From assembly GCA_964016885.1 (NCBI GenBank), contig OZ024743.1:274722001-274786000 (forward strand): a stretch of 64,000 nt of DNA, read 5' to 3'. The stretch comes from Eledone cirrhosa. Its lineage: Eukaryota. The position numbers and the translations under genes are program-made. Shown here piece by piece: positions 5,901-60,022 of this stretch. Within the stretch, counting starts at the first letter, position 1. Every line of letters starts with the position of its first letter. The notes beneath the pieces are model-generated. The model ran no database searches. It worked only from the letters and a program-made list of their open reading frames with translations, and was not told the DNA's origin.

Positions 5901-6122
5901 ATACATACATACATACATACATACATACATACATACATACATACATACATACATACATACATACATACATACATACATGTGTGTATGCGTATTCATATTG
6001 GTGTTGGGGGAAGACAGTGAGGTAATGATATTAAGGTGCGGGGTGGTGGAGTTGCCTATGTGTGTGAATGTATAAATGTGTGTATATATATATATATATA
6101 TATGCGGGTGGTGTATACACTT

Positions 6123-6177
<55 letters not shown>

Positions 6178-6299
6178 GAGAGAAACATACATGCATACAT
6201 ACATACATGCATAGATACGTACATACATATATACATGCACACATATAACTATATGCAAATATACTCTTTTCTATGACTGTTCATACATATTCAGTACTC

Positions 6300-7300
6300 T
6301 TTACTTTTTTCAGTAAAGATGATTCTGTTAAAAGGCCGCAATCAACTGTGATTCTAAGGGTTGAAAAAATCTAGATGCTAGACAACATTGAATATTCAGA
6401 AATATTGATTCTTCTACCAACAAAGCGACAGAACATTCCAGAACAGCACGATTAAGAAGATGAGTGCCATAGTGGCACCCAATAGTAAATAATTCCCCTT
6501 ACACCACATCTGAAATTCATACCATCAAGATGAGACTAACCAATGTATTTCAGCACAGATGAGATATTGTTTAATGCAAATGCCGGCTTCATTAGCTATG
6601 CTAACCTCTGAGTGTCTCAAGGTTTACCGATGTTTAAGAAGGCATGTATGTAATTCCATGAGATCCCAAGTAATCCATTGGAATTTCTGTGACGGTATTT
6701 GAATACCGCATAATTAACAACGCCCTCTTCTCGTCACTATCAGCAATCGAAAGGTCGTTGATCCACGCAGCTTAATGTTTCCTTGTTATATTGGCACAAG
6801 TCCGTTGATTACAATGCGTTAATAAACTGTAAAATTTACATCTTATCAAGAAAGCATCACACTCTAGTTGTTCTGTTCTATCTGAAGATACTTCTCTATT
6901 CATACTTGCCCAACCTGTTAAATCCACCTTTATCTACCTGAAGAATTAGAATTCCTATTAACGCAGATGAGGATACGGTTTTCTATAGACAAAGAAACAT
7001 GGAAAGATGCCAAGAAACAAACCAAGTGAAAGTTTCTACAACTGCGGGAACCCAATCCACCATGAGGTTTGTGTTGAGATAAAATAAGATGACAAATCAA
7101 TATTACACATTTTATCAAACTTTTGTCTCTCAAATAGTCCAAAATCAGTTGGAAGACCAATAAATTAAAAGTTCTGGCCGCTTCTTAAACAGGAATCAAC
7201 TTTGCTAACAGAGACAATTTTGAAGAAGTGCTATCCCGTCAGTTGCATTAAGTGTGCAGATCCTGTATCTTTTTCAAGAGAGTCGTTGGCATACAAAGAT
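6300..7300 (-). mobile_element. Highly degenerate RLE-type (CRE/R2-group-like) non-LTR fragment
   Basis: ORF 6930-7160 PHGGLGSRSCRNFHLVCFLASFHVSLSIENRIL resembles the post-RT GGLGxR..AFLAS motif; rest of region riddled with stops. Confidence 0.4.
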
Positions 7301-7413
7301 CGAATAAAGTTACACCGATTTTTTTTTTTTTTATCTTAACGGACGACAATTAATGGAAGATGACAGCTGAACATCCCTACGGTGTTTTAGTACTCGCCGA
7401 ACTTGTAATTAAT

Positions 7414-7582
7414 AATTGTTTCTACTTTTAGACACAGTGCATTACTGGTACTTTATTTTATCGACCCCGTAAGGATGAAAGGCAAAGTCAACCTCGGCGG
7501 GATTTGAACTCAGACCGTAAAGGGACGTAACTATGCTGGAAAGCATGGCGTCCGACCCTCTACCGATACTGCCAATCCACCG
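7414..7582 (-). mobile_element. SINE family A
   Basis: Reverse complement of consensus, internal deletion. Confidence 0.85.
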
Positions 7583-8189
7583 CCCTCGGTGTAATTAATA
7601 ATACGTTCACATTTGGCAATATTCAAATTTATGTATAGTTCCTTCATAGATTATTCAGTAGAGTTTAATACTAAGACTAGAAACAATTACCAAGGTACGA
7701 AACATTCAATTCATTTGACACATTATTAACAGCGTTTTTAATTAGTAAACTAAATAGTGCGGGATCTAGCGTATCATCCTGTTGAACTCTTGATTTAGAA
7801 GATATCTGATTCCATCGGAATGTTAGATATTTTCTGAATCATGGGTTTAATAGATGAGATGACGATGACTACCAATCCCATGTGAATGGATATCTATCGT
7901 GGAAACGATCTTTAACAAGTCATCATTTTGACGCGACGGATCGAAATAAAATTAGTTGAGATATTGAACTTGAGAAGGGCTTTAGCTTTATTATGTTCAG
8001 CTTGCAGATAATTACAGAGGATTGGTAGGATCGTTACAGAGGCGGCATTCCTTTCGGATCTCTGAGTTCTGAGTTCAAATCCTACCAATGACACCTTCGC
8101 TTTTTTGGGGTTTTTTGTGGGGTTTGATAAAATGCCAGTCTAGTTCTTGCGGTGATTCTTCTGTCTCTCTTTCCATCTTTATTTCTGTT

Positions 8190-14400: not shown

Positions 14401-14418
14401 ATATATATATATATATAT

Positions 14419-14620
14419 AACGAAGTAGTTGTGGTAAGGAACCAGATGGATCATAACGTACCAGAGTACTCAATACTTAGGGTACTAGAGTGGGTAATAG
14501 GAGAAAGTAGGACCCCGACGACAGAGCTCAAGCTGTTTCGACGACTATTTCTGGACTAAATTCAGTCCAGAAATATCCGTCGAAACGGCTTGAGCTCTGC
14601 CGTCGGAGTCATACTTTCTC
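14419..14620 (-). mobile_element. Approx. 200-bp hairpin-ended element in (TA)n (putative Penelope-like terminus), copy 1
   Basis: Homologous to 32901-33093, 47648-47843, 48358-48530; terminal approx. 55-bp stem containing GAAACGGC..GCCGTC. Confidence 0.75.
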
Positions 14621-26477: not shown

Positions 26478-29400
26478 TTTCTTTATTAGCCACAGGGGCA
26501 CAAATGAAGGGGACAAATACAAAGAGGGAAGTTTACATACAATAAAAACGTGTAAAATATTATCACAAATGTAATTTAAAAGTTAATCGATTTTCATATG
26601 GGTAACACATACCCCCCGAAAAAAATGTGCAACCCTCATCTCCAGGAGTACGAAGAGTGAGTACCCCTTTCCTCTCTTCCTCCTTTTCCTCAAACTACAG
26701 GCTGATATAGAGAGAAGGCCCATTCACTCGGGCCATTATCGCCACTTTCACCCACCTTTCATAAAACTTGCTGGGGTACAGCACCTCTCTCTCCATCCTG
26801 ATTCTTCTTCCAACGTGGTATTTGAAAAAAATAATCAGTTGTTGGCCGGAGAAAAAGTGTCTGACCTCACCCTTTTTAACCTCGTCCACCATACAACCTC
26901 TTTCGCCATAGCTATCACACAAAGGAAAACCGCCTCTCCTTCGTTTTTGAAGAAGGGTGGCGGTTTGATTATGACAATAGACTCGGTGGTCAACTGGATT
27001 GGTCCAACCCGCGACAATAGTCGTTCTACATAGCCCCACAGGCCGGTAACGCCCGGGTAGTGTATGAATGCGTGCGCGACGGTTTCCTCGTCGCGCACGC
27101 ATCTCGGACAGATCTTTTTCGAAAGGTCCCTTCCCGGGCGCCCGTGTCTGTAGGGCTTGTCTCGAACTGGTAGAGCTCCTCGGTAGCACTGCCGGGCCAG
27201 GGACTTTTGGAAGTTGTCCATCGGTCCCGGACGGAAGGTTCTACCGAATAGACTGGCCAGTTCGTCTTCATCTACACTCAGAGTTTCACTGAGCGCGTCC
27301 TCACACTTTCTGCGGACCAACCCTCTATAGAATGACGAAGTGGAGTCTCCACTGATCGCCGGGTCCGCCTGCCAGAGGGCTGTGAGCGCATGAGCACATT
27401 CGATGTGCGAGTCGCCCATTTTCCTCGGTCTTTGCTTGACCCAGGACTGCAGCACGGTCAACGAGACGAGTCGTGAGAATGCTCGCTTCACGAACGGAGC
27501 CCACACCGGTTATCCGGTGAGCAATACGTGGAGGTGCCACAGGCTGAGCGCGTGTTTGCGCATCGTCAGCCACGGCATCCCCAGCCCTCCGTTTGAAAGC
27601 TGTTGGCAGCAGATGGATCTTCTCACCAAAGGACCCCGCTTCTTCCAAAGGAATTGGAAGAGCGCGCGCTCCATTTTGGTGAGCGTTTTGGCTGGACAAG
27701 GCACGACGGTCAAGCGGTAGTAGATGACGGGCGCTATAAAAGTGTTCGCCACCTCCACTCGACCTTTCAAGGATAGTTTGCACTCGGCCCACTTCTGGGT
27801 GAGTGCAAACACCTTGGCCGTCACCTCGTTCCAGTTCTTCTCCACCTGGAGGTCCGGACCAAACCAGACCCCGAGCAGCTTTACTGGTCCTTCCGTCCAG
27901 CGTCCGACGACGCCATCAGAAGGCATCGGTTTGCCTCTCTACGATCCGAGTTGCAAACCGATGGACCTGTCCCGGTTCAGCTTCGCTCCTGTGAACCTTT
28001 TGTATTCCTTCAGTAAGGTGTCAACTTCCTCAATTTGCGAGGTGCTCGACACCATTACTTGTTACGTCGTCGGCCTAGGCCGACGCCGCTTTCCGCAGTC
28101 CCGGTTCCAGAGGGATGCCCTGCAATAGCTCCAACTTCCGCAGTAGTGGCTGGAGAGTCAGTACGTAGAGAAGGGAGGAGCGAAGCCATCCCTGTCGAAT
28201 GGATCGCGTGATATGGAACGGCTCTGAGAGGTAGCCGTTCACCTTGACCCTTGAGCAGATGTTGCTGTTGTGCATTGCAGAAATCCAGCCCCTGAACACG
28301 GGTCCGAAGCCTGCCGCCTGGAGCACCGCATCCAGGTAACGATGGTCAACCCTATCGAAAGCCTTAGACTGATCCAAGTTGATCAGGGCCCCACCGAAGC
28401 CGGGTTTACACCCAACCCTCTCTATGATGTATCGCATGAGGTGGAGGTACGTGTGTATGGACCAGGTCGGGATTGCGCATGTCTGCACTTCTCCCACCAG
28501 GTTTTCGACGACAAGCGCTAGCCTCTTTGCCAACACCTTGGCAAAAATCTGTAACTCTGTGTTTAGCAGAGTTATGGGCCGGAAGTTGCCTATGTCATCC
28601 CCCTTATTCTCGTCCTTCCTGACTAGTGCGACTACGCTCCTGGACACAGAACTGGGAATTCTCCTGTTCTGCTTCCAGTTGCAGTAGACCGCTTCCAGAA
28701 GACCGGAGAACAAGCCCGGCATTGCTACGTAAAATTCGTAGGGTAGCCCGTCGAGAATTTGAGATATGCGTTTGCCGCATTGGCTCAGTGCGTCCTCTAT
28801 CTCAGCGGCTGAAATCAGCGTTTCGCAGAACTTCGCCTCGCTGTCCGAGAGTCGCGGTAGGCCGTCGAGGTATGAACCGAAATAACCCCTCCCGGCGCGC
28901 CGCCCTTCCCGAGCAGTTGAGCAAAGTGCCGCTGAAAGGCCGCACACATCTGCTTCGGCTCACGTATCACGCGTCCGTTTTGGTCCTTCAAAGACTGAAT
29001 CGTGAACTTGTTGCCACTTTTTGCCTCCGTCACTCGGGCCCAGCTAACAGCTTTGGCTGCCTCGTTTCCCAGAGCACTATTTTGCTTCTGACAACGCAGC
29101 CCTCGTACTTTGCGTCGAAGAACTGGTCCAAGGCCGTTCTCGTTGCTAGCACGCTGGCTACGTTGCCACTTCTAATTGCCTCTTCTACTTTATCTACCAG
29201 TTCCTTCTCGGTTCTATTTCTATCTAACGCTAATTCTTTACTAAAAACTAACGAGTCTAATCTAACTGCCCTCTAATCTAATCTAACTGCCTTGACAGTG
29301 GCCCCTGTCAAGTGCTGTTTAACTAAAGTGCTAATCCGTCTACTGTAGGCTTTGCATGTCGGTAATGACAAGTTCAGCTTCCAGTAGCCGGGTCCTTGTC

Positions 29401-29616
29401 TATGGGTTCTATCAAGGTTGGCCATGCAGGTCACTAGTTTGTGATCTGAATAGGCAACCATGAACATTTGTGGACAGCTTAACATCTCCCTATCCTTATT
29501 TCTAACTAGAACCCTATCTAGGTACGATCTAGATGTTCCGCTAAGATTAGTCCACGTCCACAGTGGCACAGTCGGAAAATCTAGTCGATATTTATCGGCC
29601 AGGTCAAATCGGCCGC
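26478..29616 (-). mobile_element. Tx1/L1-clade LINE, 5'-truncated and frameshifted (end of APE endonuclease, RT, zinc knuckle, 3' UTR)
   Basis: ORF pieces: SYLDRVLV..SDHKLVT..GPGYWKLN (29273-29569), NFRPITLLN..DQSKAFDRVDH (28075-28947), KLLGVWFG, CPRC..H; (GATA)n on both sides. Confidence 0.92.
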
Positions 29617-29916
29617 GATAAATAGATAGATAGATAGATAGAAGTGATGAATAAAGATGCAGAGAGTAAGAGAATAAAGGATTAAAACGAAGAAAGGTAG
29701 ATGTGAAAGAATAAAGAGAAAAATACAGTAAAAGGATAATGGAAACAATGAATTAAATAAAAGAAAGAAACGAAGAAAGAAAATACGAAAGGAAGAGAAG
29801 TGAAGATATATTTAATGAAAGAAGGAAAGTAGAAATATTAGCTACAGAAGGAGAAAGATAGAAAGAAAATAAGAAGAAAGTGAAACTAAATGAAGAAAAC
29901 AGATAGGAAGGGAGAG

Positions 29917-32904: not shown

Positions 32905-33093
32905 ATGTATGACCCCGACGGCAGAGCTCAAGCCGTTTCGACGGCTATTTCTGGACTCCAGAAATAGCCGTTGAAACTGTTTGAGCTCTGCCGTCGGGGT
33001 CATACATTTTCCTGTTACCCACTCTACTACCCTAAGTATTGAGTACTCTGGTGCGTTATGGTCCATCTGGTTCCTTACCACAACTCCTTCGTT
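32901..33093 (+). mobile_element. Hairpin-ended element, copy 2
   Basis: Same family; (TA)n on both sides. Confidence 0.8.
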
Positions 33094-33417
33094 TTATATA
33101 TATATATATATATATATACAAGTGTGTGGGTATACGTATCTATGATTGTCTAACCCCTGTACTGTTGGCATAAGAAACAGCTGAACACTGCGCTTGTACA
33201 TGTACACACACACACATATATACACACATACATACACACACACATATACACACGCACAGACACAAACACACAACTTCGTGATTCATTCATTCATTTATTC
33301 TCACGAGGATGAAGTCGATGTCGACATCGTAAACCAAGAAAACACATCATTTCACAATGGATTCTGTACTCCACCATTGTAATCTCCCCCTCTCTCTCTC
33401 ACTCTCTCTCTCTCTCC

Positions 33418-38195: not shown

Positions 38196-39020
38196 ATGAT
38201 GGCTGCCCCCTCGTTATCGAGTATGGCCATTGCACGAGGAGTAAAAAAAAAAACTAATAAATAAATAAAAAAGAAAATAAAATGAATAAAAAAAGAAATA
38301 TATATATATATATATATACACACATACATATACATATATACACACATATATATATACATACACACATATACATTAATAACAATAATAATAATAATAATAA
38401 CAACAACAATAATGATATACATATACATATATATATACACACACATGCACACACATAAACATATCTATACACACACACACACACGATAGCAACTAACAGC
38501 GCTGCGATCGAATGTGGCTTTTTAGCCCAGCCAATGATCTAAAATGTCTTGCACAGAGTCGGCAACCAAAACATTCACTGGCAATAGCCGGCTGTGGTTG
38601 GAGTTCGTGTACTTTTGCATGTCGTTTGAGCCCTCCTGCTGATTTACATTCTCTACCACATGTTTGGCAAGCATGATGAGTAGCATCTCCAACAGCAGCC
38701 TGGTAGTCAACCACTGGTCTTACTTTATGACTGCGAAGATGACTTTCGAGTCCAGCTTTGCTTAGGCAGAGTCTCGCACATACGCTGCATGTCAGCACCA
38801 TAGGAGGACCCTCGCCGTCTGGAAGAGCAACAGCAATGCCCTTCCTCACATCCCGCTTTACTTTCTCGTATGCGATTCGAGATGCCCCCAAGGCAACTTT
38901 TCCCTCAGATACAGTCTTTCTCCATTTATTACGATCAGCAGCAATATTTTCCCATGTATCAGCAGAGATGTTAGCGTCTTTCAGAGAGGCTTTCAAGGAA
39001 TCATTATACCTCTTTTTATG
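38196..39020 (-). mobile_element. RTE-clade LINE 3' end with three C2H2-like fingers; 3' UTR split by microsatellites
   Basis: ORF 38493-39023 KKRYNDSLKASLKDANISADTWENIAADRNKWR, then CxxC..H motifs x3; UTR tail at 38196-38238; (CATA)n flanks. Confidence 0.82.
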
Positions 39021-39156
39021 CATTCATACATACATACATACACATACATAAATACATACATACATACATATATGCATTCATACATACATACATGTATGCA
39101 TTCATACATACATACATACATACATACATACATACATACATACATACATACATACA

Positions 39157-42275: not shown

Positions 42276-43859
42276 TTCTTTTTATTTGCCACCAGGGCAT
42301 CAAAAGTGGGACAAGTACAAAGGGGGGAGTTTACATGCAAAGGCGTCCTCAATATGGAGGAGGCAATAACGAGATATAAAAGTATAAAATAAAATAAAAT
42401 ATAACAAAATAAATTTTATTACAAAATCCTCAATAGGGAGGAGGCGCCTTGGGGGGTCGCACACACCCCCGAAAAAAAGTGTGCAACCCTTCTCCTCAGG
42501 AGCACAGAGAGGGGGTGCCCCCTTGGTCTTTCATCTTCCTCACCTATAGTCTGATGTAGAGTGAAGGCCCATTCACACGGGCCATTCTCGCCACTTTCAC
42601 CCATCTTTCATAAAAACGGCTGGGGTGCAGCACCTCTCTCTCCATCCTGATCCTTCTTCCGAAATGATATCGGAAGAAACGGACCAGTTGTTGGCCAGAG
42701 AGAAAGGTGTCTGACCTCAGTCCTTTCAGACGCGTCCACCATACAACCTCTTTCGCCATGGCTATTACGCACAGATACACCGCCTCTCATTCGTTTTTGA
42801 AGAGGGGAGGCGGCTTGATCGTTACAATAGACTCGGTGGTCAACCGGATCGGTCCCACCCTTGACAGCAGTTGTTTGACATAGTCCCACAGATCGGCAAT
42901 ACCCGAGCAGTGTACCAATGCGTGTGCAACGGTTTCCTCGTCGCACACGCATCTGGGACAGATCTTTTTCGAGGGGTCCCTACCCGGGCGCTCGTGTCTG
43001 TAGAACCTTTCTCGAACGGGCAGAGCTCCTCGGTAGCACTGCCAGGCCAGGGACCTCTGGAAGTTATCCATGGGTCCCGGCTGAATGTCCTACCGAACAG
43101 GTTGGCCAGTTCGTCTTCCTCCATGCCTAGGGCTTCTCCGAGGGCGTCGTCGCACCTGCTAACCACCAGCCCTCTATAGAATGACGAGGTGGATTCTCCA
43201 CTGACAGCCGGGTCCGCCTGCCAGAGAGCCGTGAGCGCCTGGGCACACTCGGTGTGCCAGGCGCCCAGTTTTCTCGCTCTTTGCTCGACCCAGGATTGCA
43301 GCTCGTTGAGTGAGACGAGTCTGGGAAAGGCTCGCCTCACAAACGGGGCCCACACCGGTTGACCGGTGAGGAATACCTGGAGGTGCCGTAGCCTTAATGC
43401 GTGTTTACGCATCATTAGCCACGGCATCCCCAGCCCTCCTTTCGAAGGGTGTTGACAGCAGATGGATCTCATCACCATAAGAGCCCGCTTCTTCCAGAGG
43501 AATTGGAAGAGTGCGCGTTCCATTTTGGCGAGCGTTTCCCTTGGGCAAGACACGACGGTCAGGCGGTAGTAGATGACGGACGCTATATAAGTGTTCGTCA
43601 CCTCCGCCCGACCTTTCAGGGACAGTTTGCACTCGGCCCACTTCTGGGTCAGTGCAAACACCCTGTTCGTTACCTCACCCCAGTTCTTCTCCACCTGGAG
43701 GTCTGGTCCGAACCAGACCCCGAGCAACTTCACCGGGCCCTCCGTCCAGCGCCCGACGACGCCATCGGAGGGCATCGATCTGCTCCTCCACGTGCCGAGT
43801 TGCAGACCGATCGACTTGTCCCGGTTCAGCTTAGCCCCTGTAAACCTTTCGTACTCCTC
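42276..43859 (-). mobile_element. Tx1-clade LINE, 5'-truncated (second 3' UTR type)
   Basis: ORFs 42544-43775 match the C-terminal half of the 604-aa ORF; 5' junction into ATAGATAGATAG. Confidence 0.92.
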
Positions 43860-43863
43860 ATAG

Positions 43864-43902
<39 letters not shown>

Positions 43903-43905
43903 TAA

Positions 43906-44862
43906 TTTTCTTTTTATTTGCCACCAGGGCATCAAAAAGTGGGACAAGTACAATGGGGGGAGTTTACATAAAAAGGCGTCCTCAATAAGGAGGAGGCAAT
44001 AACGAGATATAAAAGTATAAAAATAAAATAAAATATAACAAAATAAATTTTATATAAAATCCTCAATAGGGAGGAGGCGCCTTGGGTGTTCGCACACACC
44101 CCCGAAAAAAAGTGTGCAACCCTTCTCCTCAGGAGCACAGAGAGGGGGTGCTCCCTTGATCTTTCATCTTCCTCACCTATAGATTGATGTAGAGTGAAGG
44201 CCCATTCACACGGGCCATTCTCGCCACTTTCACCCATCTTTCATAAAAACGGCTGGGGTGCAGCCCCTCTCTCTCCATGCTGATCCTTCTTCCGAAATGA
44301 TATTAGAAACGGACCAGTTGTTGGCCAGAGAGAAATGTGTCTGACCTCAGTCCTTGCAGACGCGCCACCATACAACCTCTTTCGCCATGGTTATTACGCA
44401 CAGATACACCGCCTCTCATTCGTTTTTGAAGAGGGGAGGCGGCTTGATCGTTACAATAGACTCGGTGGTCAACCGGATCGGTCCCACCCTTGACAGCAGT
44501 TGTTCGACATAGCCCCACAGATCGGCAATGCCCGAGCAGTGTACCAATGCGTGTGCAACGGTTTCCTCGTCGCACACGCATCTGGGACAGATCTTTTTCG
44601 AGGGGTCCCTACCCGGGCGCCCGTGTCTGTAGAGCCTTTCTCGAACGGGTAGAGACCTCTGGAAGTTATCCATGGGTCCCGGGCTGAATGTCCTACCGAA
44701 CAGGTTGGCCAGTTCGTCTTCCTCCATGCCTAGGGCTTCTCCGAGGACGTCGTCGCACCTGCTAACCACCAGCCCTCTATAGAATAACGAGGTGGATTCT
44801 CCACTGACAGTCGGGTCCGCCTGCCAGAGAGCCGTGAGCGCCTGGGCTCACTCGGTGTGCCA
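43906..44862 (-). mobile_element. Tx1-clade LINE, 5'-truncated
   Basis: Near-identical to 42276-43260 with small deletions; GATA flanks. Confidence 0.9.
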
Positions 44863-44863
44863 G

Positions 44864-44894
<31 letters not shown>

Positions 44895-45041
44895 GAGATA
44901 GATAGAGAGAGAGGGAGAGAGAGGGAGAGAGAGGGAGAGAGAGAGATAGAGAGGTAGTTAGAGAGGTAGATAGATGCGAACGTCAGACATATGGATACGA
45001 GACAAGCAGACAGACAGAAAGACAGACAGACAGACAGACAG

Positions 45042-45105
<64 letters not shown>

Positions 45106-45106
45106 A

Positions 45107-45223
45107 TTTCTATTTATTTGCCACGAGGGCACAAAAGAAGGGGACATTTACACAGTGGGGTAGTTTACATAAATCGAGTAAAGAAAAAAGGAATAACAAT
45201 AATAATATAACAATAAAAAGTCA
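45107..45223 (-). mobile_element. Tx1-clade LINE extreme 3' end (third UTR variant)
   Basis: TTTCTATTTATTTGCCACGAGGGCACAAAAGAAGGGGACA resembles the other 3' ends; lies between two (GATA)n tracts. Confidence 0.75.
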
Positions 45224-45239
45224 TAGATAGATAGATATA

Positions 45240-47316
45240 TTTCTTTTATTTGCCACTAGGGCATCAAAAGTGGGACAAGTACAAAGGGGGGAGTTTACAC
45301 AAAAAGGCGTCCTCAATAAGGAGGAGGCAATAACAAAATATAAAAATAAAATAAGATATAACAAAAAATAAAATTTTTAACAAAATCCTCAATAGAGAGG
45401 AGGCGCCTTGGGGGGTCGCACACACCCCCGAAAAAAGTGTGCAACCCTTCTCCTCAGGAGCACAGAGAAGGGGTGCTCCCTTGGTCTTTCATCTTCCTCA
45501 CCTATAGTCTGATGTAGAGTGAAGGCCCATTCACACGGGCCATTCTCGCCACTTTCACCCATCTTTCATAGAAACGGCTGGGGTGCAGCACCTCTCTCTC
45601 CATCCTGATCCTTCTTCCGAAATGATATCGGAAGAAACGGACCAGTTGTTGGCCAGAGAGAAAGGTGCCTGACCTCAGTCCTTTCAGACGCGTCCACCAT
45701 ACAACCTCTTTCGCCATGGCTATTACGCACAGAAACACCGCCTCTGCTTCATCTTTGAAGGGGGGAGGCGGCTTGATCATTACAGTAGACTCGGTGGTCA
45801 ACCGGATCGGTCCCACCCTTGACAGCAGTTGTTCGACATAGCCCCACAGATCGGCTACGCCCGAGCAGTGTACCAATGCGTGTGCAACGGTTTCCTCGTC
45901 GCACACGCATCTGGGACAGATCTTTTTGGCGGGGTCCCTACCCGGGCGCCCGTGTCTGTAGAGCCTTTCTCGAACGGGTAAAGCCCCTCGGTAGCACTGC
46001 CAGGCCAGGGACTTCTGGAAGTTGTCCATAGGTCCCGGGCTGAATGTCCTACCGAACAGGCTGGCCAGTTCGTCCTCCTCCATGTCTAGGGCTTCTCCGA
46101 GGGCGTCGTCGCACCTGCTGCGTACCAGCCCTCTATAGAATGTTGCGGTGGAGTCTCCACTGATAACCGGATCCGCCTGCCAGAGGGCGGTGAGCGCCTG
46201 GGCACACTCAGTGTGCCAGGCGCCCAGTTTTCTCGGTCTTTGCTTGACCCAGGATTGCAGCTCGGTGAGTGAGACGAGTCTGGGAAAGGTTCGTCTCACA
46301 AACGAGGCCCACACCGGTTGTCCGGTGAGGAATACGTAGAGGTGCCGTAGCCTTAATGCGTGTTTACGCATCATTAGCCACAGCATCCCCAGCCCTCCTT
46401 TCGAAGGGTGTTGACAGCAGATGGATCTCCTCACCATAGGAGCCCGCCTCTTCCAAAGGAATTGGAAGAGCGCGCGCTCCATCTTGGTGAGGGTTTCCCT
46501 TGGGCAGGGCACTACGGTCAGGCGGTAGTAGATGACGGACGCTATGTAGGTGTTCGCCACCTCCGCCCGACCTTTCAGGGATAGTTTGCAACTGGCCCAC
46601 TTCTGGGTCAGTGCAAACACCCTGTTCGTAACCTCCGCCCAGTTTTTCTCCACCTGGAGGTCCGGTCCGAACCAGACCCCGAGCAACTTCACCGGGCCCT
46701 CCGTCCAGCGTCCGACGACGCCATCGGAGGGCATCGGTCTGCCCCTCCACGTGCCGAGTTGCAAACCGATCGACTTGTCCCGGTTCAGCTTAGCCCCTGT
46801 GAACTTTTCGTACTCCTCCAGTAAGGTGCCGACCGCCTCGATTTCGGAGGCCGTCGACACCATTACTGTCACGTAATCGGCGTAGGCCGACACCGCTTTC
46901 CGCAATCCCGGTTCCAAAGGGATGCCCTGCAACAACTCCAACTTCCGCAGTAGTGGCTCGAGAGTCAACACATACAGAAGGGAGGAGAGAGGGCACCCTT
47001 GTCGGATGGACCGCGCGATTTTGAACGGCTCCGAGAGGTAGCCGTTCACCTTGACCCTAGAGCAGATGCGGCTGCTGTGCATAGCAGTGATCCAGCCCCT
47101 GAAAACGGGTCCGAAGCCTGCCGCCGCTAGCACCGCATCCAGGTAACCATGGTCGACCCTATCGAACGCCTTAGATTGATCCAAGTTGATCAGAGCCCCA
47201 CCAAAGCCGGGTTCGTTCCCAACCCTCTCTATGATGTATCGCATGAGGTGGAGGTTGTCATGGATGGACCTGGACGGGATAGCGCATGTCTGCGCATCTC
47301 CCACCAGGTTGCCCAA
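45240..47316 (-). mobile_element. Tx1/L1-clade non-LTR retrotransposon, 5'-truncated (RT, C-terminal zinc knuckle, 3' UTR)
   Basis: ORF2 motifs LDQSKAFDRVDH, SIRQGCPLSSLLY, KLLGVWFG, GGLG, CPRC..H..HC; 3' UTR ends AAATAAAAGAAA; (GATA)n at both junctions. Confidence 0.93.
45502..47316 (-). pseudogene. 604-codon open fragment of LINE ORF2 (reverse transcriptase); catalytic YADD reads YADY
   Basis: Uninterrupted ORF in track; starts directly at a (GATA)n junction with no endonuclease domain; AYADYVTV here versus GCC GAC GAC (ADD) in the 28 kb copy. Confidence 0.88.
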
Positions 47317-47374
47317 GATAGATAGATAGATAGATAGATAGATCGGTATGTAGATAGAGAGAGAGGGGGAAGAG

Positions 47375-47426
<52 letters not shown>

Positions 47427-47647
47427 GTCGATTGATTGATTTGTATGTGAGAATCCAACATAGATTGATTTAAAAAAAGCGGGAAACCAGCATATGTGGA
47501 GAAAGAGTGAAGAATAGTGAACAGCGTGATAACAGAGAGGGGGGTAAATAATAGATTAATAAATAGAGAGCGACACAGAGAAACAGATATAGTGTTGTAG
47601 GAGGGGGGGAGACACCGGCTGATGAATATATATATATATATATATAT

Positions 47648-47841
47648 AGGAAAATGTTCAAGACCCCGACGGCAGAGCTCACGCCGTTTCGAGGGCTATT
47701 TCTGGACTGAAATAGCCGTCGAAACGGCGTGAGCTCTGTCTTCGGGGTCTTGAACATTTTCCTATAACCCACTCTACTACCCTAAGTATTGAGTACTCTG
47801 GTGCGTTATGGTCCATCTGTTTCCTTACCACAATTCCTTCG

Positions 47842-47843
<2 letters not shown>
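47648..47843 (+). mobile_element. Hairpin-ended element, copy 3
   Basis: Same family; (TA)n on both sides. Confidence 0.8.
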
Positions 47844-47887
<44 letters not shown>

Positions 47888-58088: not shown

Positions 58089-58154
58089 TATTTTATTATA
58101 CATATTTCAGAGGTACTGAGCTATTTCAACAGTACGTCCTCATCAGATAAAATA
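58089..58154 (-). ncRNA. Type I hammerhead ribozyme motif
   Basis: TATTTTAT-CTGATGA-GGACGTACTG..CAGTACCTCT-GAAA-TATGTA-TA/ATAAAATA: 8-bp stem I, paired stem II, AUA site. Confidence 0.85.
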
Positions 58155-58700: not shown

Positions 58701-58830
58701 GTGTGTAGGAGGTGAGTTTTATTGTAGTACAATAAAGCAATGCAGATATCGGATAAGAAGCACTCTACAGTTTGTAGGACTGGAGTATACATAATATATA
58801 AGATCAAAAGATGGTTAAAAGAGTTCCATG

Positions 58831-58901
58831 TATTTTATTATGCGCATTTCAAAAACAAATATCATCATGCAATAATATTTGTGTTTTCATCAGATAAAAT
58901 A
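58831..58901 (-). ncRNA. Type I hammerhead ribozyme motif
   Basis: TATTTTAT-CTGATGA-AAACACAAATATT..ATATTTGTTTTT-GAAA-TGCGCA-TA/ATAAAATA; palindromic stem III ATGCGCAT. Confidence 0.85.
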
Positions 58902-59085
58902 GGAAGACATGATATGAAGGTTAAAAAACACTTGTGAATAGTGCAGTTTTAAATCAACATATATATATATATATGTAGAGGTTATATTTAATTTGTTGGG
59001 ATACAACAAGCAAAATATTTTTATAACTGAAGGTTGCATTTTTTCAGGGTATGTCAATATTTATTTATAAAACTAATCTATATTA

Positions 59086-59151
59086 TATTTTATCTGATGA
59101 AAGCGCACCATAATCTGCCTTGGTGGCCCTTGAAATACGTATAATGAAATA
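59086..59151 (+). ncRNA. Type I hammerhead ribozyme motif
   Basis: TATTTTAT-CTGATGA-AAGCGCACCA..TGGTGGCCCTT-GAAA-TACGTA-TA/ATGAAATA; palindromic stem III ATACGTAT. Confidence 0.85.
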
Positions 59152-59541: not shown

Positions 59542-59988
59542 CACACACATATATATACACACACTGATATAATTATAATAAATGATGAGACAGAAGACTT
59601 TATGAAATAAACAGTCTTACCTTGATGGCTAATACCGGGGTTTGTAACACCCGCTACATTCATGTAACATAGCTGTTCACACTTTCTTACTTTCCGCGCT
59701 AGTTTTTATGTTTTCCTTTTGATTTTTGAAAACACGAGAACCAACTAAACTTATGTGTTGACTGACTGAGTGAGACTGAGAGAGTAAGAGGGTGGAGTGA
59801 CTGTGTGAGTGAATGACTGTGAGTCTGTGTGTATGTCGTATACGTTGTGTGGTTGTTAACTAAATGTGTGTGTTAACATATGTGTATGTTTGAGCTAATG
59901 TATGTTATGTATGTGCGTGTGATTGTTTATTAAATGTATATATATAATATATAAGAACAAAAGATGGTTAAAAGAGTTCCATGTATTT

Positions 59989-60022
<34 letters not shown>

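Follow-up and report, generated by a model that had tools for sequence, protein, structure and literature searches.

Does a 48-bp genomic copy that starts exactly at a predicted hammerhead cleavage site record cleavage of its RNA template in vivo, or does its end fall there by coincidence? The question is raised by two related pieces of DNA in the window, by which we mean the whole 64-kb stretch of Eledone cirrhosa DNA that was analyzed. Element positions are numbered along the RNA (minus) strand, +1 being the first base after the AUA triplet of the hammerhead (window 58838) and -1 the base preceding it. The short piece had been described as a duplicate of 58791-58838 whose homology stops at the first base after the AUA triplet and which is followed by (TA)n, and this description was borne out by comparison within the window: 47 of the 48 bases are identical, the homology ends at 58838/59991, i.e., at +1, and a (TA)n run occupies 59992-60007 (Table 1).

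Junctions of the 48-bp copy

The flagged copy belongs to a known type of element, of which it is an ordinary truncated representative: it gave a 96% blastn match to a full-length copy (locus L202) of a Penelope-like family, it has (TA)n on both sides, and its left end, +48, is one of the two fixed 3' ends of that family. Of the original prediction that it is a retrocopy of the 3' self-cleavage product, the retrocopy was retained, as a 5'-truncated arm of a Penelope-like retroelement, whereas an origin from the cleavage product found no support for this copy. We assign a probability of roughly 0.7 to the reading that the piece is a heavily 5'-truncated Penelope-like copy in (TA)n, joined to the repeat by TAT microhomology, and that its end at the cut is coincidental. 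The first three letters of the copy in RNA sense, ATA (TAT at 59989-59991), already extend the TA run, and the 5' junction is therefore ambiguous between +1 and +4. The same three-letter microhomology to (TA)n is offered by ATA starts at element positions +1, +6, and -3; the caveat entered at the outset, that an AT-rich junction may coincide with the cut by chance, proved apt, as these three sites are used about equally. No feature of the single 48-bp copy distinguishes a coincidental end from run-off at a cleaved template.

That the two window pieces lie only 1.15 kb apart in the same orientation would fit a local duplication of 58791-58838, and a few copies with TAT-bounded internal deletions would fit erosion of a longer copy by deletion between TA microhomologies. 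Both are very improbable here. The sole mismatch between the pieces, at +35, corresponds to a variant that is common among the subfamilies (76 A/A and 44 T/T among 123 two-arm insertions) for which the neighbor carries the other allele, and since this mismatch is a subfamily marker the 48-bp piece is an independent insertion and not a copy of 58791-58838. Moreover, its left end is the fixed +48 end of the family, whereas the neighbor continues to +135, and the same layout of TA repeat and +1 to +48 is present at no fewer than five unlinked loci (L206-L210). Small tandem arrays were also seen, with two +1 to +48 units in one TA tract at L210 and three 83-bp units at L374.

Table 1. Coordinates of the Penelope-like arms, the hammerhead motif and the flanking repeats in the window.
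Feature	Position	Strand	Basis or remark
Long arm of the same family, 259 bp, -124 to +135, (TA)n on both sides	58704..58962	-	98.8% match to L202 across 260 bp
Type I hammerhead motif: stem I of 8 bp, stem II of 12 bp, helix III ATGCGCAT self-complementary	58831..58901	-	motif scan; predicted cut between 58839 and 58838
Short arm of Penelope-like element, 48 bp, +1 to +48 as counted from the predicted hammerhead cut	59944..59991	-	47/48 identity to 58791-58838
(TA)n target, 5' junction	59989..60007	.	TAT 59989-59991 common to element and repeat (3-nt microhomology)
Short (TA)n, 3' junction, overlapping the +48 end of the element	59937..59946	.	sequence; putative nick and priming site

A Penelope-like family with a type I hammerhead

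A 21-mer taken from the 48-bp copy had 8,653 exact matches in the genome, while its reversed control had none; the family, a 3.7-kb Penelope-like element bearing Hydra-clade motifs, numbers at least 8,653 copies. At L202 a tandem arrangement was found in which two hammerheads, 3,709 bp apart, flank an open reading frame of 798 amino acids, the 3,709-bp unit including a microsatellite in the 3' UTR; L203 combines a tandem with an inverted arm. Together with 150 short inverted joins, these loci display the pLTR-ORF-pLTR partial tandems and inverted 5'-truncated copies of EN+ Penelope-like elements, and the inverted insertions, in which a long and a short arm are combined, agree with the tail at one end only that is seen in such elements. 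Further EN+ traits are the single ORF with a reverse transcriptase domain, here with FDIA and YRDDG motifs and 37 homologs, 16 of which were aligned and one of which carries a precomputed PF00078 match, plus a GIY-YIG endonuclease at the C-terminus. The latter is assigned by homology only: one of six homologs scanned (P0031) reaches the cut-off (E 1.3e-4), its matching region aligning with LIYECKV...YFGSTS of the ORF, whereas the 798-aa ORF itself matched no relevant Pfam family and no PDB chain. A tblastn search of the ORF against the 64-kb window gave no match.

Assignment of this Penelope-like family to the Hydra clade is likely on the basis of its motifs. DKT at 123, CNCPVKNKC (the CxCX5C linker) at 657, CNLCLNE (CxxC) at 757, and NRRTDLFSLCLH (CxH) at 776 are all present, the CxxC and CxH motifs lying around the conserved E and N, and nearly all 3' ends of 97 unselected arms enter (TA)n or a related microsatellite; according to the available part of PMC8557442, these motifs and insertion into (TA)n mark the clade. 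That text also describes for Hydra-clade EN+ elements the single ORF with RT and C-terminal endonuclease, the hammerhead in the pLTR, tandem and inverted 5'-truncated copies and the one-end tail encountered here. Contrarily, the unit of 3,709 bp in L202 exceeds the generally reported length below 3 kb, which is given there as a tendency and not a rule, RWI stands at 37 in L202, where most aligned homologs have RWK, and the two 3' ends enclose a tail of about 87 nt as compared to the published 30-40. The family may already be catalogued in the family list of that source (PMC8557442). A non-LTR retrozyme, defined in the available portion of 10.64898/2026.07.22.740005 by tandem non-coding monomers that each carry a hammerhead, was rejected, the tandem unit being a 3.7-kb coding element and the short copies being inverted or solitary, with no phasing to the cut site.

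The type I hammerhead of the long arm was called by a pattern scan, not by Rfam, which lists no hammerhead either at the gathering score or when 102 matches up to E 10 are considered. Its minus-strand layout is TATTTTAT-CTGATGA-stem II-GAAA-TGCGCA-TA^ATAAAATA, and the scan found the CUGANGA and GAAA core, the NUH triplet, and helices I-III. Stem II was computed at -9.1 kcal/mol and helix III at +7.1 kcal/mol as a monomer hairpin but at -11.1 kcal/mol as a dimer duplex; the unconstrained fold of the hammerhead shows nothing out of the ordinary (z -1.3). From its palindromic helix III, the motif would be expected to cleave as a dimer, the architecture described for metazoan Penelope-like hammerheads (Cervera and De la Pena, 2014; PMC4209133, available part). 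In the same text, type I cores in the pLTR, a long helix II, a palindromic helix III suited to dimers, motif pairs 100-700 bp apart on opposite strands, and mostly solo, truncated copies parallel the present case, whereas helix I of the minimal motifs has 4-5 bp as compared to 8 bp in our predicted motif. The core is intact in 69 of the 97 unselected arms, and the long arm in the window contains the hammerhead intact and uncut, its 5' end being the commonest of the family (-124).

The motif scan detected three type I hammerheads in the window, namely 58831-58901 (-), 58089-58154 (-), and 59086-59151 (+), which share the core and, almost entirely, stem I, whereas stems II and III differ. The latter two belong to other repeat families, with palindromic helices III TATGTA and TACGTA and with stem II and flanks differing from those of 58831-58901, and relatives of both occurred in the fetched loci. 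All three hammerhead-bearing fragments are situated within 1.1 kb of one TA-rich tract. Elsewhere in the window, about 40 bp at 33073-33112, 47823-47864, and 14401-14439 match the flank of the L202 3' end and probably represent the end of another small repeat. Several decayed non-LTR retrotransposon copies with RT motifs were seen at 26587-29752 and 42608-47469 (-), including a 655-aa open frame at 45502-47469, and a 176-aa open frame with C2H2-like zinc-finger motifs at 38493-39023 (-) resembles the C-terminus of another non-LTR element. Beside the full-length element in L202, at 6069-8001 (-), there are open frames with a Walker A motif and helicase-like features, possibly of the PIF1/Helitron type.

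Ends of the family copies relative to the cut

The ends of 97 distinct arms, obtained from the first 100 of the 8,653 matches and unselected with respect to the cut, were mapped. Their 3' ends fall at two fixed positions, about +48 (+45 to +53 in 50 arms) and about +135 (+128 to +139 in 39 arms), both running into (TA)n; three more arms enter the ORF and five end elsewhere. The 5' ends are spread: 93 of the 97 arms cross the cut site, four end within +1 to +6, one of them at +1, and 23 at -122 to -125, ends below -128 being unreliable as extension halts at subfamily differences, indels, and microsatellites. The pile-up at -124 carries the sequence ATATGTTGA and often forms a perfect head-to-head palindrome about CATATG (e.g., L161, L169, L181, L186, L195, and window 58962). 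An exact 30-bp head-to-head palindrome centered on -124 was present at 716 loci in the genome, and among the unselected loci five symmetric joins lay at -124 as compared to none at the five other centers tested. Microhomology alone was rejected as the cause of this pile-up, given 716 loci at -124 as compared to 16 at a stronger 8-bp palindrome, a ratio that is rough as the search patterns differed. Position -124 is likely the RNA 5' end, i.e., the transcription start, probably set by an internal pLTR promoter by analogy to Penelope of Drosophila (PMC2377424, in the part available), and most templates would be uncut RNA. Palindromes at -124 give rise to many MITE-like inverted elements of about 430 bp.

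Copies breaking off between +18 and -24 were filtered from the genome (1,447 matches), and 98 of the first 100 were scored, of which 17 were dropped as indels. Among the remaining 81 junctions, four were at +1, seven at +5, and eight at -14, the probability of four or more at +1 being 0.13. Taken together, +1 to +5 accounted for 20 of the 81 junctions, about twice the uniform expectation of 9.6, and this excess is partly due to T-run/A-run microhomology with -13 to -17. When all 40 matches with an A/T-only flank were classed by eye, pure (TA)n followed +6 in ten cases, +1 in four (five if an imperfect TA run is included), and -3 in three to five. TA-flanked ends in 44 loci among the matches listed were distributed as six at +1, six at +6, four at -9, and none at -3, so the upstream TAT site (-3) is used less in these 44 loci.

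Matched whole-genome patterns for +6, +1, and -3 returned 53, 68, and 46 rows, of which 14, 11, and 21, respectively, were dropped by eye as substitutions or indels. The arms that remained, 39 at +6, 57 at +1, and 25 at -3, differed in number (p=0.002), and so did the count by locus (47 at +1 as compared to 39 and 25; p=0.035). However, 27 of the 57 rows retained at +1 belong to 17 symmetric palindromes, and the excess of +1 over +6 and -3 is due to these loci. After their removal, the non-symmetric arm ends, classed by eye, numbered 39 at +6, 30 at +1, and 25 at -3 (chi-square p=0.20), and since the excess is then gone, single and asymmetric ends do not pile up at the cut. The fossil evidence of cleavage in vivo that the 48-bp copy had been thought to supply is thus unsupported, as the ends of the family in the main show no accumulation at +1, whether counted in the unselected arms (1 of 97), in the junctions between +18 and -24 (4 of 81), or in the (TA)n-flanked copies. 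The more general idea of cleavage survives in a rare class, the symmetric head-to-head joins at +1.

Following these end maps, we propose that the endonuclease of the element nicks (TA)n, that reverse transcription starts internally in the RNA at +48 and/or +135, as in an Anolis element, that the cDNAs usually pass through the uncut hammerhead toward -124, and that their ends join the target or each other at short microhomologies. For the 48-bp copy, reverse transcription would have started at +48 and the short-arm cDNA would have been rejoined to the TA repeat via TAT. The Poseidon element PAc of Anolis, as described in the available sections of the study by Frangieh et al. (2024; PMC11167929), has a tail that was attributed to two internal sites of RT initiation downstream of the hammerhead, an AT-rich target, uncut RNA as the main template, and a predicted dimer, all resembling the present family; uncut RNA was there the prevailing substrate in vitro, and none of the RNA-seq reads ended at the cut. 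PAc differs in belonging to another clade, and both 3' ends here lie upstream of the ORF start. That study maps 3' ends, and in the sections available no 5'-end pile-up and no symmetric joins at the cut are described. Reading a self-cleavage site from genomic 5' junctions has a precedent in the HDV-like ribozyme of R2, which also provides one for 5' junctions that chance microhomology determines (Eickbush et al., 2013; PMC3774820, available part); there, the cut defines the normal RNA 5' end, whereas at least 93 of the 97 copies here run through it.

Symmetric head-to-head joins at the cleavage site

At 17 loci in the genome both arms of an inverted insertion end at +1 and share the terminal AT. 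The 12 of these loci whose sequences were retrieved differ in their flanks and comprise at least three sequence variants, which makes propagation of one palindromic progenitor unlikely. Of all 150 short inverted joins that matched the anchors, 141 distinct joins were scored by script, one was a duplicate, and eight were left unscored, their listed rows showing no such join. Eight of the 141 were symmetric at the AT center of +1/+2, as compared to five in all at eight other 2-bp centers (1, 1, 0, 2, 0, 1, 0, and 0; binomial 1.8e-5), and the computed duplex energy of the +1/+2 center is no better than that of the others. The cut site was set in advance by the ribozyme, although the symmetric class was picked after the data had been seen. 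A comparable test in the second hammerhead family (58089-58154) yielded one locus, with an asymmetric join, too small a sample to weigh.

The arms of an insertion agree in their subfamily variants well above chance, in 120 of 123 cases (expected 53%), 86 of 87, and 129 of 131, which suggests that one RNA or source served, through two RT starts, as the template of both arms of an inverted insertion; if that template was cut, the two arms would therefore both stop at +1. A single cDNA folding back on itself fails to explain most inverted joins, as it is the short-tail arm that reaches the more 5' position in 82 of 141 (the long-tail arm in 18, both equally in 41; L241-L378), nor can the short arm template +49 to +135 of the long arm. 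A spacer deletion converting a +1/-63 join through stem I into a +1 palindrome gained no support, such joins numbering 0 in 381 loci that had not been selected for them, while the genome-wide +1 filter would miss them. Recurrent asymmetric joins of the A-run +3 to +6 with the T-run -13 to -17 (L272, L278-L281, L284, L299, L301, L317, and others) were observed, their symmetry register coinciding, or nearly so, with that of the helix III palindrome.

These joins bear on the possibility that the 48-bp copy is itself a run-off product of hammerhead-cut RNA, with about 2% of transcripts cut at +1, reverse transcription from +48 running off the 5'-OH end, and the terminal AT annealing to the (TA)n target in the case of the 48-bp copy or to a sister cDNA in the case of the symmetric palindromes. 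The 17 loci and the enrichment at +1/+2 without an energy advantage speak for such run-off, as does the same geometry at the presumed true RNA end, -124, with its 716 loci; arms that share variants would both end at +1 if copied from one cut RNA or source, and the palindromic helix III predicts dimer cleavage by comparison with the architecture in the available text of PMC4209133. Nevertheless, +1 is not in excess among single or asymmetric arms, the symmetric class was defined only afterward, one of the 17 loci lies on a small unplaced contig and another has a complex junction, and symmetric joins also occur at internal palindromes that are not RNA ends, namely 16 at the 8-bp ATGCGCAT center upstream of the cut and 11 at CATG (three of them in one tandem array). 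An unrecognised sequence preference behind the symmetric joins is possible. Weighing these points, we consider it unlikely that the 48-bp copy arose by run-off, and a coincidental end remains our preferred reading for it. For the symmetric +1 class as such, the chances that it reflects real cleavage are even or somewhat below even. If this class is real, roughly half of the TA-flanked +1 copies could derive from cut RNA, judged from the background at -3.

The ratio of 17 symmetric palindromes at +1 to 716 at -124 is about 2%, a rough figure as the two patterns differed. It leads to a tentative view, held at somewhat below even odds, in which the 5' ends of the copies map the templates used in vivo, about 98% of them being uncut RNA reaching to -124 and about 2% running off at the cut +1, the 48-bp copy being potentially one of the latter. 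In literature searches that covered openly accessible articles and their main texts, no paper on symmetric joins at a Penelope-like hammerhead was listed.

The role of the hammerhead in Penelope-like elements has been described as unclear in the available text (PMC8557442; Craig et al., 2021). In PAc, the single active element that has been studied, cut ends were not found in vivo (PMC11167929). The 48-bp copy alone does not settle this role, whereas the family-wide end map provides a modest hint of rare cleavage in vivo. According to the same map, most inserted cDNAs would stem from uncut RNA, and the likely RNA start can be deduced from genomic sequence. From the symmetric palindromes, a few percent of transcripts would be predicted to have a 5'-OH end at +1, and any genome that harbors a young, high-copy family would allow the same end count. 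If the tentative view of cut and uncut templates is true, it would be genomic evidence of germline cleavage by a metazoan Penelope hammerhead, which would be rare and dispensable for transposition.
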